Positions 5,993 through 10,546 of a DNA stretch of 32,438 nucleotides are shown here, piece after piece. The DNA is taken from IMG/VR virus record IMGVR_UViG_2534681773_000029, one strand, 5' to 3'. Each line of letters begins with the position of its first letter. Position 1 is the first letter of the stretch. Made by a program: the position numbers and the translations under genes. The notes beneath the pieces are model-generated. The model was not told the DNA's origin and did no database searches. It was given only the letters and a program-made list of their open reading frames with translations. The stretch is from a virus. Lineage: Duplodnaviria > Heunggongvirae > Uroviricota > Caudoviricetes.

Positions 5993-6006
5993 GAGCGAAG
6001 TCTTGC
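5993..6006. repeat. 14-bp direct repeat GAGCGAAGTCTTGC, copy 1
   Basis: Exact match to 6257-6270; copy 1 sits just after a TTGCGA-N17-CATAAT promoter-like element (5957-5985). Confidence 0.7.
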
Positions 6007-6034
6007 TAGTCTTTCATCGGATTGATGACGGGCG

Positions 6035-6066
6035 CAAAAAAACCACCCTGGCAGGTGGTTTTTTTG
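6035..6066. terminator. Bidirectional intrinsic terminator (A-run, ACCACC-loop-GGTGGT hairpin, T7 run)
   Basis: aaaaaaaccaccctggcaggtggttttttt read directly; works on both strands. Confidence 0.6.
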
Positions 6067-6077
6067 TTTGAAGCATA

Positions 6078-6191
6078 CTAAAGAAAAATACTTACATGGA
6101 TATTACTGACGTTTACTGACAAACCACTCGGACTACCATATGGATAGCCAAAGAGGGCCAGAACGAGAATGCAGTAATAGCACTTCTTCAT
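6078..6191 (-). CDS. Candidate 37-aa hydrophobic peptide (MKKCYYCILVLALFGYPYGSPSGLSVNVSNIHVSIFL); possible type I toxin-like or small membrane protein
   Basis: ATG at 6191 preceded by AGGAGG; ends 12 nt before the terminator at 6035-6066; below the ORF-track length cutoff so hand-translated. Not a recognised family. Confidence 0.35.
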   Translation of the reverse strand: MKKCYYCILVLALFGYPYGSPSGLSVNVSNIHVSIFL

Positions 6192-6256
6192 ATCGCCTCC
6201 TGTAAGCAGAGGGCAATTTCCGCCGATATATGCGCTTCTAAGGCGGAGTGACTATT

Positions 6257-6270
6257 GAGCGAAGTCTTGC
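6257..6270. repeat. 14-bp direct repeat GAGCGAAGTCTTGC, copy 2 (in predicted 5' UTR of the small-peptide mRNA)
   Basis: Exact copy of 5993-6006; lies about 66 nt upstream of the peptide start on the minus strand. Confidence 0.7.
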
Positions 6271-6847
6271 CCTGAAATAATGCTCTGTTTAAACGCAAAG
6301 TGATCTGGCATATCACCGAACAGAGGACCTGAACAACACAACATATAGTATGTCGTTGTTTCTGGTTGCATTTTATGTTGTGTAATACTGGTTTTGCATC
6401 AAGGATGTTTGAGCTTTTTTTGATATAGCTCAAAGTAAAAAGCAGAGACTACGGATGATAAGGTCTTGAAAGCAATGTAAATTTTTTAAAGTTGTGAGTG
6501 GCTAGAAATGCACAGTTTCAATATGGCGGATTTAAACAAGTAATTAAAAATAGCGACATAAATTCCAATAAAATCATTAGGTTGCGTTTTCTGTGGAAAC
6601 TTCGGTGACTCTGAAATTTTCTTTTAGTGTCGCTGAGGTTTAACAACTCGCTGCGCAAGTAGTTAGTGTTTTTTTAACTCAATATTCTGATTTATAAGGT
6701 TTTTTATAAATCGTGGGCTGGTTGCGCGTATTCATCTCGTGTTATCAGCAAAGATAAGCTCTATATGCAGAACTGAATGCATATATGATGTCGAAAATGT
6801 TATGGGAAAACGTGGATTAGTGTTATAGTAATGGCTGAAAAACAGCC

Positions 6848-6876
6848 TTGACATAAAATAACAACTGTGATATGGC
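6848..6876 (+). promoter_or_regulatory. Possible promoter for the peptidase gene (TTGACA -35 at 6848-6853; weak -10 TATGGC after 17-nt spacer)
   Basis: Perfect -35 hexamer but poor -10; low confidence. Confidence 0.25.
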
Positions 6877-6912
6877 TGTGCATACTTAACTTTTTTAACG
6901 TAGGAGGCAACC

Positions 6913-7398
6913 ATGAGCTATGCAGCTAAAAAACTGCTTGACCGCTATTGGGATCGCCGACTACCTGTCGATCCGTTTAAGCTTGCTAAAGCGTGGGGTG
7001 CTCGTGTTGAAGCACTTGAGGAATCGGCTTATAACAACGATGGGTTAAGCGGTCTGGCTGTCATCAAAAAGGGTGTCCATAGGATTTATTTTGATTCTAG
7101 TGAACATTCTAATCGTCAACGTTTTACTGTTGCACACGAGTTAGGTCATCATGTGCTGGGGCATACCCAGGACGGAGAGTACCATCGGGATAATGTCGGG
7201 AATTATTCAACAGGTGCTCGTGATTATCGTGAGGTTGAAGCAAACAAGTTTGCTGCTGAGTTGTTAATGCCTGAGTCTGCTATACGTCAATTGGTATCCA
7301 GAGAAGGTATTGATAGCACTTTGAGATTAGCAAGCATCTTTAATGTATCAGAAGCCGCTATGCATTGGCGCTTAAAGAGCTTAGGAATGGCTTATTAA
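6913..7398 (+). CDS. ImmA/IrrE-family (M78-like) Zn metallopeptidase
   Basis: 161-aa ORF with AGGAGG SD; HEXXH motif (AHELGHHVLGH) and downstream EVEANKFAAELLMPE, the signature of ImmA/IrrE peptidases. No HTH partner gene adjacent. Confidence 0.8.
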   Translation: MSYAAKKLLDRYWDRRLPVDPFKLAKAWGARVEALEESAYNNDGLSGLAVIKKGVHRIYFDSSEHSNRQRFTVAHELGHHVLGHTQDGEYHRDNVGNYSTGARDYREVEANKFAAELLMPESAIRQLVSREGIDSTLRLASIFNVSEAAMHWRLKSLGMAY

Positions 7399-7423
7399 TT
7401 AGCCTTTAACTTTTAACCTGTTT

Positions 7424-7464
7424 AAAATCACCTTTACGTTTGTACATGTAAGGGTGATTTTTTT
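7424..7464 (+). terminator. Intrinsic terminator or attenuator downstream of peptidase gene
   Basis: Hairpin ATCACCTTTA / TAAGGGTGAT followed by T7, ending immediately before the ATG at 7465. Confidence 0.5.
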
Positions 7465-8064
7465 ATGGCTGATATTGATTTATCTGGACAGTCCCCAGAG
7501 CAAGGAACCACTCCTAAGGGCGATTTAGATCCTGATATCCTTATAAGGCGAGATAGACGGGATGGTATAGAGCGTAGAAGTATGCGATTAGTGCTCTCTG
7601 CCGTTGTGCTTTGTTTTGCTTGTACATTTCTATGGCAGGGGCTTAACTTTGCTTTGGCTGTTGGAAATGGCTTGCTGGAAGCGAAAAGCAGTATTGCCGC
7701 AGCGATAACACAAAAAGTAGATACACAAACTTGTGTTTCAGCAGAAAAATGTTCTGCTTTATCTTCGGATCCGAAGATGGCTGATGAGAGGATAACACCA
7801 TCTTCAGACACTAATAAAGTTAGAAAATCTATTTCTGGTTTATCCACCGATTGGTTATCGGCCAGTTCTCTAATAGCTATTGTTGCATTCATCCTTGGTG
7901 TGGGTTTAACTTTGCTTTTGACTCTTCTTAAATCAGCATTTCAACACCCGACAGATAAAGACTTTAGAACAAAGTCGACATCTAATACTATTGAGTTGGC
8001 CACGCCAATCAGTGAATTAATAATTGGTGTTCTGAATATAATTAAAGACAAACTATCTAAGTAA
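7465..8064 (+). CDS. Predicted membrane protein with two hydrophobic helices, unknown function
   Basis: 199-aa ORF; hydrophobic stretches RLVLSAVVLCFACTFLWQGLNFALAV and SSLIAIVAFILGVGLTLLLTLL; improbably long open frame for AT-rich DNA. Start uncertain: no good SD at 7465, internal Met at 7582. A minus-strand ORF 7434..7892 overlaps it. Confidence 0.4.
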   Translation: MADIDLSGQSPEQGTTPKGDLDPDILIRRDRRDGIERRSMRLVLSAVVLCFACTFLWQGLNFALAVGNGLLEAKSSIAAAITQKVDTQTCVSAEKCSALSSDPKMADERITPSSDTNKVRKSISGLSTDWLSASSLIAIVAFILGVGLTLLLTLLKSAFQHPTDKDFRTKSTSNTIELATPISELIIGVLNIIKDKLSK

Positions 8065-8106
8065 AGCATTAGTTGTGATTTTTTATTGGTTTTAGTGATA
8101 ATACAT

Positions 8107-8140
8107 CTCCAGTACTTATTGTTACTGGAGAGTATTTTTA
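8107..8140. terminator. Hairpin (CTCCAGTA / TACTGGAG) with T-rich tail between convergent genes
   Basis: Perfect 8-bp inverted repeat with 8-nt loop, followed by AGTATTTTTA. Confidence 0.4.
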
Positions 8141-8247
8141 GTCGTTTTATATTTTTAATGTTAGTGAATGATATTCACGAGAGTTCACGTTCGATGTGAT
8201 GTAATCGGGGGCGTTAACACCAAGAATCGCAACGAGTAATCGGCAAA

Positions 8248-9087
8248 TTAAAGCCTGCATTTGTTGTAATATGTCATCTCCATATTGATAATTGTTAATA
8301 GTGGTAAAGCCAAGTGGTTGACCATGAAACATAGCTTCATGAAAGTTTTCATTGCGGATGTTTGTAATGTTTTTTTGCCTGTAACCCATGATGGTCGTGG
8401 TATTCCATAAGTTTTGCAGATCCACTTCAAGCGCCTGGAGTGATTTAGAGTCTTTTCTGTACACTTGTTCTTTTCTGCCCATGTTAAAGCAAAGCAACTA
8501 TCCAGTGCCATATAAAGATACTGGAATTTTTCGAAGCTAAGGTATTGTGGGTTTTGGGATAAAAATAGTGCATGCACTATTGCTGCTATATTTATTGGTG
8601 CGTGTTTGGTTTTTGTCTCGCTAGACATGTATTTGAGTGCTAATTCTATAACCTCTTTTTCAGAGCACTTGACCAGAATAAAGTCAGTTAATTTGCTGGG
8701 TTTTATTGGGGTTGCGTCTAAAAAACCGGCATCAGTAGTTGTTAATCTTATCCCTTTGAAAAAAGACAGACACCACACAGCAAAATTGAGAGTTTCTAGT
8801 GAAGATGTATTTTTTAATTTTAGTGAGTGTGTTTTGGGTAAGCCAAATACTCGTTGGCTAAAAGGCATTGTGGATATGCCTCCATTGAGGTTATATACTT
8901 CTTGGTTTCCTGGGTATATCCAACCGTTAATAACATTTCTGTGATTGTTTATAAGATTTGTTTTTTCCGCTAGACCGGGTAAAGTAAGTAAAGAAAAATC
9001 ATCAGTTTCAACGTTAACTTCTACTGGATAGTATCCAAACTCAGCTTCAATATCATTGGATTGCTGTTCGTCAACTTTACCTTGCAT
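8248..9087 (-). CDS. Hypothetical protein of unknown family in cargo island; possibly frameshifted (see overlapping ORF 8147..8497)
   Basis: 279-aa minus-strand ORF; a second open frame continues to 8147. One extra A in the A7 run (plus-strand T7 at 8370-8376) would fuse them into about 313 aa. No recognisable catalytic motif. Confidence 0.45.
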   Translation of the reverse strand: MQGKVDEQQSNDIEAEFGYYPVEVNVETDDFSLLTLPGLAEKTNLINNHRNVINGWIYPGNQEVYNLNGGISTMPFSQRVFGLPKTHSLKLKNTSSLETLNFAVWCLSFFKGIRLTTTDAGFLDATPIKPSKLTDFILVKCSEKEVIELALKYMSSETKTKHAPINIAAIVHALFLSQNPQYLSFEKFQYLYMALDSCFALTWAEKNKCTEKTLNHSRRLKWICKTYGIPRPSWVTGKKTLQTSAMKTFMKLCFMVNHLALPLLTIINMEMTYYNKCRL

Positions 9088-9324
9088 ACATTGCTCCGGT
9101 CAAAAATAGGCTCGATAATTCTCGTAAGCCTATCATGTTCGCAAAGTATCCATACCTGTGGATTTTGTAAATTTAAGTTGATTTGTCATTAAATAAGCCG
9201 TTGCATGCAACAAGTGAATGTTTTTGCATGCGTCGGGGATGTCCGTTCAGGCTGCGTGCGGTCAGGACTGGTGCGGATCCATAGTATCTATGCAACTGCA
9301 TTAAAACCGCCCCATGAAGCGGGC

Positions 9325-9343
9325 GGGCGAGGCGGGGAAAGCA
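9325..9343. other. cos: cos site (19-nt cohesive-end sequence GGCGAGGCGGGGAAAGCAC)
   Basis: Exact match to the P2/P4 cohesive-end sequence as I recall it; lies in the expected place upstream of Q. Confidence 0.7.
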
Positions 9344-9486
9344 CTGCGCGCTGGCGGTGGTGCTGATTTTATTTTTTCAGCGTCTGAGCGCGTCGTGATG
9401 GCGTTTAGATTGTTCGCCGGGGCGTTGGTGTGTCTGCGGGCTGTTTTGTGCGGTGGTGAGCGTGTGAGGGCGTGATGGCGGGTTGT

Positions 9487-9508
9487 AAAAAAGCCGCCCG
9501 CAGGCGGC
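9487..9508 (-). terminator. Intrinsic terminator after Q (minus strand)
   Basis: GCCGCC-CGCA-GGCGGC hairpin with T6 on the minus strand, 6 nt past the Q stop. Confidence 0.5.
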
Positions 9509-9513
9509 GATGT

Positions 9514-10503
9514 TCAGCCGTTGTCAGTGTCCAGTGAGTAGTTTTTAAAGCGGATGACCTCCTGACCGAGCCAGCCGTTTATTTCCCGAATCCTGTCCTG
9601 TAACGGGATTAGCTCATTGCGGACAAAGACCTTTGCCACTTTCTCAATATCGCCCAGTGACCCGACGTTCTCCGGCTTGCCACCCATCAACTGAAAGGGG
9701 ATGCGGTGTGCGTCCAGCAGGTCAGCGGCGCTGGCTTTTTTGATATTAAAAAAATCGTCCTTCGTCGCCACTTCACTGAGCGGGATAATTTTAATGCCGT
9801 CGGCTTTCCCCTGCGGGGCATAGAGAAACAGGTTTTTAAAGTTGTTGCGGCCTTTCGACTTCACCATGTTTTCGCGAAGCATTTCGATATCGTTGCGATC
9901 CTGCACGGCATCGGTAACGTACATGATGTATCCGGCATGTGCGCCGTTTTCGTAATACTTGCGGCGGAACAGCGTGGCCGACTCATTCAGCCAGGCAGAG
10001 TTAAGGGCGCTGAGATATTCCGGCAGGCCATACAGCTCCTGATTAATATCCGGCTCCAGCAGGTGAAACACGGAGCCGGGCGTGAAAGGTGTCGGCTCGT
10101 TGAAGGACGGCACCCACCAGTAAACATCCTCCTCCACGCCACGACGGGTATATTTGGCCGGTGAGGTTTCCAGTCTGATGACCTTACCGGTGGTGCTGTA
10201 ACGCTTTTCCAGAAACGCATTACCGAACACCAGAAAATCCAGCACAAAGCGGCTGAAATCCTGCTGGGAAAGCCACGGGTGCGGGATAAACGTTGAGGCC
10301 AGAATATTACGTTTGACGTAAATCGGTGAGCTGTGATGCACGGCAGCACGCAGGCTTTTTGCCAGACCGGTAAAGCTGACCGGTGGCTCATACCATCTGC
10401 CGTTACTGATGCATTCGACGTAATCCAGAATGTCACGGCGGTCGAGTACCGGCACCGGCTCGCCAAAGGTGAATGCCTCCATTTTCGGGGCGCTGGCGGT
10501 CAT
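9514..10503 (-). CDS. Q: Portal protein gpQ
   Basis: 329-aa ORF matching P2 Q. A 15-codon ORF (10500..10547) starts at an ATG overlapping the P stop and would join in frame with one extra homopolymer base, giving 344 aa. Confidence 0.85.
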   Translation of the reverse strand: MTASAPKMEAFTFGEPVPVLDRRDILDYVECISNGRWYEPPVSFTGLAKSLRAAVHHSSPIYVKRNILASTFIPHPWLSQQDFSRFVLDFLVFGNAFLEKRYSTTGKVIRLETSPAKYTRRGVEEDVYWWVPSFNEPTPFTPGSVFHLLEPDINQELYGLPEYLSALNSAWLNESATLFRRKYYENGAHAGYIMYVTDAVQDRNDIEMLRENMVKSKGRNNFKNLFLYAPQGKADGIKIIPLSEVATKDDFFNIKKASAADLLDAHRIPFQLMGGKPENVGSLGDIEKVAKVFVRNELIPLQDRIREINGWLGQEVIRFKNYSLDTDNG

Positions 10504-10546
10504 TGTTTTTGCCGCTGGTCGCGGTGTTTTCCCTTTTTCTTGCTCA

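Follow-up and report, generated by a model that had tools for sequence, protein, structure and literature searches.

A probable standalone HEPN RNase defence gene, carried as cargo by a P2-like prophage and split by a one-base contraction

Two overlapping reading frames on the minus strand of a P2-like prophage raise the question whether they represent two genes, one gene with an unusual mode of decoding, or one gene that is broken. They are located at 8147-9087 of a Caudoviricetes sequence of 32,438 nucleotides (nt) (IMG/VR record IMGVR_UViG_2534681773_000029); this whole stretch is called the window here and all coordinates refer to it. According to the list of open reading frames (ORFs), the first frame (8248..9087) starts with the ATG at 9087 and encodes 279 amino acids (aa), while the second (8147..8497, 116 aa) lies in frame -1 relative to it and stays open down to the TAA at 8147-8149. 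Both overlap at a run of seven A residues (A7; T7 at 8370-8376 of the plus strand) in the context ACAGGC-AAAAAAA-CATTA. Either one extra A or a -1 slip joins the two frames, and with one A inserted into the run a single 313-codon ORF indeed results, closed by the TAA named above. An initial annotation, made from the sequence alone, had described this arrangement and proposed a fusion of about 313 aa; the ORFs, the homopolymer and the effect of the insertion were all confirmed. In our reading, the locus is one cargo gene of the prophage, the product is probably a standalone HEPN RNase with a role in defence, and the loss of one base, from A8 to A7, is predicted to disable the copy in the window.

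The two frames are one gene, and its normal product has 313 aa. A megablast search with positions 8050-9200 against 5,426 complete Escherichia coli genomes gave 47 matches at ≥99% identity, and the top matches listed were mostly 1152 bases long, compared to 1151 bases of the query. A 69-base probe centred on the run matched 47 of the 47 genomes over 70 bases, and the exact A7 form was found in none of these close relatives. There, the locus is annotated as a single coding sequence of 942 nt (WP_001161722.1, "hypothetical protein"). With one A added, the window gene shows 100% nucleotide identity to this coding sequence and also to the copy of Salmonella phage MET_P1_103_31. By exact look-up in a large protein collection, the 313-aa sequence was found on at least 1000 contigs and the 279-aa product (WP_001435665.1) on about 10-17. 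Since the 313-aa form is intact, the window carries a rare one-base loss, a contraction from A8 to A7; A8 is present in ~98-99% of public copies and A7 in ~1-2%. Nothing suggests that the two-frame arrangement of this rare allele is a designed feature.

Homologues lead to the same conclusion. The initial annotation had judged the second frame to be more protein-like than the tail of the first, and alignment of both frames bears this out: the second frame is conserved in every relative examined (R245, H250, G260, R283, Y296), the tail in none. The opposite result, homologues with a complete 279-aa frame and an unconserved downstream frame, was sought among these relatives and not found. In the A7 product, 239 native residues are followed by 40 unrelated ones, and the last 74 native residues are lost. 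The protein cluster of WP_001161722.1 also holds an A9 allele (P0278, WP_249516152.1), whose product of 246 aa ends in ...GKKKHYKHPQ. Two further disrupted alleles in this cluster (P0272, P0277) yield shorter products, one of 144 aa, present on 16 contigs of Salmonella Infantis, and one of 132 aa that results from a frameshift.

What kind of protein is disrupted? The initial annotation had left the family unassigned and had seen no known catalytic motif. The former holds at the level of profiles: scans of the fused protein with Pfam, NCBIfam and PADLOC gave no match even at permissive thresholds, and scans that included 35 + 46 + 8 homologues revealed no meaningful family. The best match to a HEPN profile was HEPN_RiboL-PSP, in one of 46 members and with E = 0.074, so that no HEPN profile detects the family. 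The UniRef name "Apea-like HEPN" of one member (P0063) was likewise not reproduced by profile scans. However, at the superfamily level the protein can be assigned, and a catalytic motif is present. In an alignment of 46 members, reaching down to 25% identity, T86, H87, G112, E186, P232, R245, H250, G260, R283 and Y296 are invariant, while N246 and E251 are conserved in ≥90%. R245-N-E-N-F-H250 fits the HEPN signature, defined as Rx4-6H (PMC3710099), including the polar residue after the arginine, and the invariant R-N-x3-H-E motif argues for catalysis. The frameshift occurs only 5 residues before R245. The A7 product lacks the last 74 native residues, R245 and H250 among them, and is therefore predicted to be catalytically dead.

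The predicted structure is consistent with this assignment. In the AlphaFold2 (AF2) model, an N-terminal domain of ~140 aa with mixed strands and helices is followed by a C-terminal domain with HEPN fold, an all-alpha up-down helical bundle. We are highly confident that the C-terminal half belongs to the HEPN superfamily. A Foldseek search against the PDB returned noise only, and the N-terminal domain gave no convincing match in the searches made. Its first ~55 residues showed a marginal match to bacterial RyR-domain proteins (PDB 6uhi, 3nrt; E 0.003-0.6) with the diverse profile A2, and the domain carries an invariant motif, L-P-K-T86-H87. With profile A1, a PDB match to E. coli NrdB, at its N-terminus, was obtained (E ~0.005); it disappeared with the more diverse A2 and was rejected as spurious.

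The family is large and uniform. A word-indexed search gave 603 matches in Salmonella, Citrobacter, Klebsiella, Enterobacter, Aeromonas, Acinetobacter, Pseudomonas and Stenotrophomonas, while an exhaustive profile search gave 654 representatives at 50% identity from Gamma-, Beta- and Alphaproteobacteria. Full-length representatives have ~290-325 aa and occur alongside shorter fragments. Two true homologues were already on record: ORF313 of P2-EC67 (AM157369, CAJ43160.1; 313 aa, 78% nucleotide identity, same locus) and the family phrog_5937, whose match covers the whole protein (E = 3e-205). Neither has an annotation beyond hypothetical or unknown function; ORF313 has been deposited as such since the mid-2000s. 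Another family, phrog_34836, matches the last 76 aa only, which would fit an origin from a split C-terminal fragment. The start codon used here is identical to the one annotated in P2-EC67 ORF313, which also has an annotated ribosome-binding site (RBS), and in two further relatives (L001, L002). The features of the locus are collected in Table 1.

Table 1. Coordinates of the cargo gene, its frameshift and nearby elements in the window.
Feature	Position	Strand	Basis or remark
P2-type cos 19-mer, GGCGAGGCGGGGAAAGCAC	9326..9344	+	Exact match, 0 expected by chance
GGAG (9097-9094), 6-nt spacer, ATG start (9087-9085)	9085..9097	-	Read from sequence
Native N-terminal 239 codons, M1-K239	8371..9087	-	ORF list; identical to WP_001161722.1
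Content of the N-terminal segment: ~140-aa alpha/beta domain and first helices of the HEPN domain	8371..9087	-	AF2 model
A7 run, frameshift site	8370..8376	-	Intact alleles A8 = AAA AAA AAC (K238 K239 N240)
40 out-of-frame codons and stop, tail of the 279-aa ORF	8248..8370	-	Non-native; no counterpart in homologues
Native C-terminal 74 codons, N240-I313, and TAA	8147..8371	-	Frame -1; HEPN catalytic end; conserved in homologues
HEPN signature R245-N-E-N-F-H250 (CGC AAT GAA AAC TTT CAT)	8339..8356	-	Read from sequence
Hairpin with 9-bp stem	8106..8131	between convergent genes	-17 kcal/mol, z = -6.2 against shuffles

The genomic position of the gene is that of a cargo gene. The window represents a P2-like prophage, of which a close relative is inserted next to cpxP and shows the complete gene order of P2. 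A cos site, identical to the P2 19-mer, separates the cargo gene from portal gene Q. The position of cos puts the gene at the right end of the phage map, which is where old is found in P2. The gene starts ~240 nt from cos, and its reading direction leads from there towards replication gene A. Its slot between gene A and gene Q is thus the one that holds old and tin in P2, and this gpA-gpQ interval is a known hotspot of anti-phage systems (PMC9122126; PMC9519451). The GC content is 35-41% over 6000-9000, compared to 51-61% in the flanking phage genes. With its own RBS, only weak promoter-like matches upstream and a terminator-like site after portal gene Q, the gene appears to be independently transcribed; terminator-like hairpins were seen at 9307-9326 and 9493-9510. 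The hairpin that the initial annotation had placed after the stop codon is present as well and begins 15 nt past it. Its T-rich tail is confined to the plus strand, so that it acts chiefly as the terminator of a convergent operon, while it may also serve the minus-strand gene. This plus-strand operon of two genes (6913-8064) encodes a 161-aa ImmA/IrrE protein (Peptidase_M78) and a 199-aa protein with two hydrophobic segments that belongs to phrog_8096 and to no other family. The operon is part of the low-GC cargo block that also holds the 313-aa gene. Other phages with this gene lack the operon, which might represent an independent second module for cargo or defence.

The gene travels without fixed partners, and its neighbours differ between loci. 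While it faces the ImmA/IrrE operon in the lineage of the window, it faces ORF226 and ORF73 in P2-EC67 and other small genes in Yersinia phage vB_YpM_46 and phage 613R3. Homologues are found beside Gabija-like genes on a Pseudomonas aeruginosa island and, in Aeromonas, as a lone insert between housekeeping genes. In Acinetobacter the homologue stands beside a gene for DUF4238, a validated defence domain of the P2 hotspot (PMC9122126). A relative-locus search with alignment A1 yielded 23 diverse genome loci, and at all of them the homologue is a single ORF. Their 127 nearest neighbours, considered without a matched control, include integrases, resolvases, proteins of type IV secretion systems and phage structural genes, together with PADLOC matches to Avs3a, Hhe, AbiEii, PtuB, DpdC, Mokosh and several PDC candidates. 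Three betaproteobacterial loci (L030, L033 and L038, from Achromobacter, Albidiferax and Thauera) have the homologue flanked on one side by the same ORFs, of 159, 174 and 418 aa, and two of the three share a 422-aa ORF on the other, which suggests a common mobile element. A defence role has also been predicted computationally: the DefensePredictor study lists WP_001161722.1 as "Predicted novel defense gene", with a mean log-odds of 9.68 against a strict cutoff of 4 (PMC13092281). The sequence motifs of the protein were not found in the supplement file of that study that holds the tested sequences, and its 311-aa system built on WP_097419291.1 turned out to be an unrelated sequence. We found no literature mention of WP_001161722, P2-EC67 ORF313 or CAJ43160, and no report of a defence test of the gene.

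Among known defence systems, three single-protein HEPN nucleases invite comparison. ApeA (Gao et al., 2020; Pfam HEPN_Apea and ApeA_NTD1) is a standalone abortive-infection tRNA anticodon nuclease that is switched on by a ligand bound at a distance from the active site (bioRxiv 10.64898/2026.01.26.701840). Like ApeA, the protein studied here is encoded by a single gene and combines a sensor-like N-terminal domain with a C-terminal HEPN domain carrying Rx4H. However, its N-terminal domain of ~140 aa is of mixed alpha/beta type, while that of ApeA has ~300 aa and is mostly beta (PMC3710099), and neither the PADLOC ApeA model nor Pfam HEPN_Apea or ApeA_NTD1 matched the protein even at E ≤ 10. HepS from the Gifsy-1 prophage of Salmonella is a constitutive standalone HEPN protein as well; it cleaves tRNA anticodon loops and thereby aborts infection (PMC13043305). 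It shares with our protein the prophage origin and the standalone organization, whereas HepS homologues are single-domain proteins of <250 aa from lambdoid prophages, compared to 313 aa, an extra N-terminal domain and a P2-like prophage here; no sequence similarity to HepS was detected. DARNA/PD-T7-3, known from the E. coli pangenome, is another HEPN-based single protein for abortive infection that cuts tRNA anticodon loops (bioRxiv 10.64898/2026.02.22.705581). Its domain order is the opposite one, with an N-terminal HEPN domain (R117x4H122) and a C-terminal domain that senses single-stranded DNA, and PADLOC gave no match to it. The protein is thus a member of none of the three, since profiles are unmatched or domain order or size differ; for HepS and DARNA/PD-T7-3, identity is ruled out by architecture. 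With old and tin of P2 it shares the position beside cos and the expected role, a lysogen that excludes other phages, while the proteins are unrelated: Old is an ATPase-TOPRIM nuclease, whereas a HEPN RNase is predicted here.

ApeA, HepS and DARNA are infection-cued anticodon nucleases with a separate sensing surface and a change in oligomeric state, and from them we infer that the protein would act as a latent RNase. The lysogen would produce it constitutively in an inactive form. Infection by a phage would then provide a cue, sensed by the N-terminal domain or through a change of the oligomeric state, that switches the HEPN RNase on, which in turn would cut tRNA or mRNA so that the infection is aborted. 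RNase activity, anti-phage role and trigger are all putative in this scheme. In the A7 copy, translation would depart from the native frame after K239, add 40 unrelated residues and stop at 279 aa, while slippage on the run could restore a trace of full-length protein.

Several alternative explanations have to be considered, and the most serious one concerns the run itself. The genome might truly carry A8 and an intact 313-aa gene, with the homopolymer undercalled during sequencing or assembly. We regard such an artefact as a real possibility, yet the less probable one, and lean slightly towards a real A7 allele, which would be a recent mutation. That single base is all that sets the window gene apart from the intact allele, with no secondary decay; its nearest relative is an older draft assembly (GCA_000250175.2); and a second one-base loss, in an A6 run 2.2 kb away, breaks the start region of the portal gene. 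Moreover, three of the assemblies with A7 (CP121419, CP121426, CP121427) are visibly error-prone at homopolymers, as terminase and portal are split in them. However, the window shows only 2 specific one-base indels in 22 kb when compared with a 98.5%-identical relative prophage, even though it contains 12 runs of ≥7 bases. A7 is also present in assemblies with an intact portal gene (L006, a Logan contig from 7 samples, and L008), and its product has a RefSeq protein of its own, WP_001435665.1. The allele is found on two flanking haplotypes of single-nucleotide polymorphisms, each of which has A8 members too, so that A7 arose more than once, be it biologically or technically. As to the portal gene Q (minus strand, 10503-10545), one A is lost from the A6 run at 10534-10539 (ATGAGCAAGAAAAAGGG; AAAAAA in relatives). 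This breaks the 344-aa ORF at codon 5 and leaves a longest ORF of 329 aa with its ATG at 10503. The same indel occurs in the A7 assemblies L003-L005 and L007, but not in L006 and L008, and it reflects either a defective prophage or a second homopolymer undercall. In the complete-genome assemblies L003-L005 (CP121426, CP121419, CP121427), several single-base homopolymer indels affect the same prophage, with the terminase split into 129 + 441 aa and the portal into 271 + 57 aa, and their A7 call is unreliable for this reason.

If the A7 allele is real, it could still be more than a casual mutation. Programmed recoding, in which a -1 ribosomal frameshift or transcriptional slippage on A7 normally makes the 313-aa protein beside the 279-aa one, would be attractive in so far as exactly the native 313-aa sequence results if tRNA-Lys slips by -1 on AAA AAA A or if the transcript gains one A. 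We nevertheless consider it extremely improbable: the in-frame A8 form is overwhelmingly the norm, all homologues are single ORFs with the two-frame layout in none, the tract is restricted to one enterobacterial clade and the alternative tail of 40 aa is unconserved. In addition, A7 is shorter than the run length required for efficient slippage of bacterial RNA polymerase, and no stimulatory RNA structure, for which 5-9 nt would be the expected distance, was found downstream of the run (z = -0.6, first pairing 28 nt away). It might also be speculated that the A-run is a contingency tract, a phase-variable switch that turns a costly abortive-infection toxin off and on in lysogen populations. 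The run occurs as A7, A8 and A9, it shortly precedes the catalytic motif, and the two haplotypes with both A7 and A8 members suggest recurrent slippage, though this recurrence could equally result from recurrent sequencing error. Such a switch appears very unlikely to us, since A8 is so dominant among the copies, since the Yersinia phage allele lacks the tract, as do the homologues of Pseudomonas, Aeromonas and Acinetobacter, and since the loss-of-function alleles with products of 132 and 144 aa trace to other sites of the gene, a pattern that ordinary mutation would produce. Furthermore, 8 bases are short for efficient switching in enterobacteria proficient in mismatch repair. The same low probability applies to the wider idea that the gene founds a new standalone HEPN defence family, with an N-terminal sensor domain of a new kind, in which the A8 run is a recurrent mutational off/on switch, silencing a costly RNase in P2 lysogens when, for example, a co-resident phage would trigger it. 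Some full-length protein could then come back by reversion or by slippage on A7, either in transcription or in translation.

Finally, a protein with HEPN fold might have a role other than defence, either as a toxin that stabilizes the prophage or as a non-catalytic nucleotide-binding protein. We deem this unlikely. No antitoxin-like gene is conserved, given that the neighbours differ between loci, and a search for an upstream repeat array of the ToxI/AbiF type, as a source of an RNA antitoxin, found nothing relevant. The invariant motif speaks against a non-catalytic function, and the hotspot, the defence neighbours and the DefensePredictor score all point to defence.

Taken together, a standalone HEPN RNase for defence, disrupted in the window by the loss of one A, is the reading we consider probable. 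The frameshift itself is ordinary and routine, and for annotation it means merging the two ORFs at 8147-9087 and flagging them as a single disrupted gene. Of more use is the disrupted gene, which encodes a standalone HEPN protein in a prophage defence hotspot and whose defence role had already been predicted computationally. The family is widespread, consists of single genes with a HEPN motif and falls outside the coverage of Pfam, NCBIfam and PADLOC profiles. Should the gene prove to serve defence, one more standalone HEPN effector would be known, equipped with a new sensor domain, and the A7 allele would be a ready-made natural null control.
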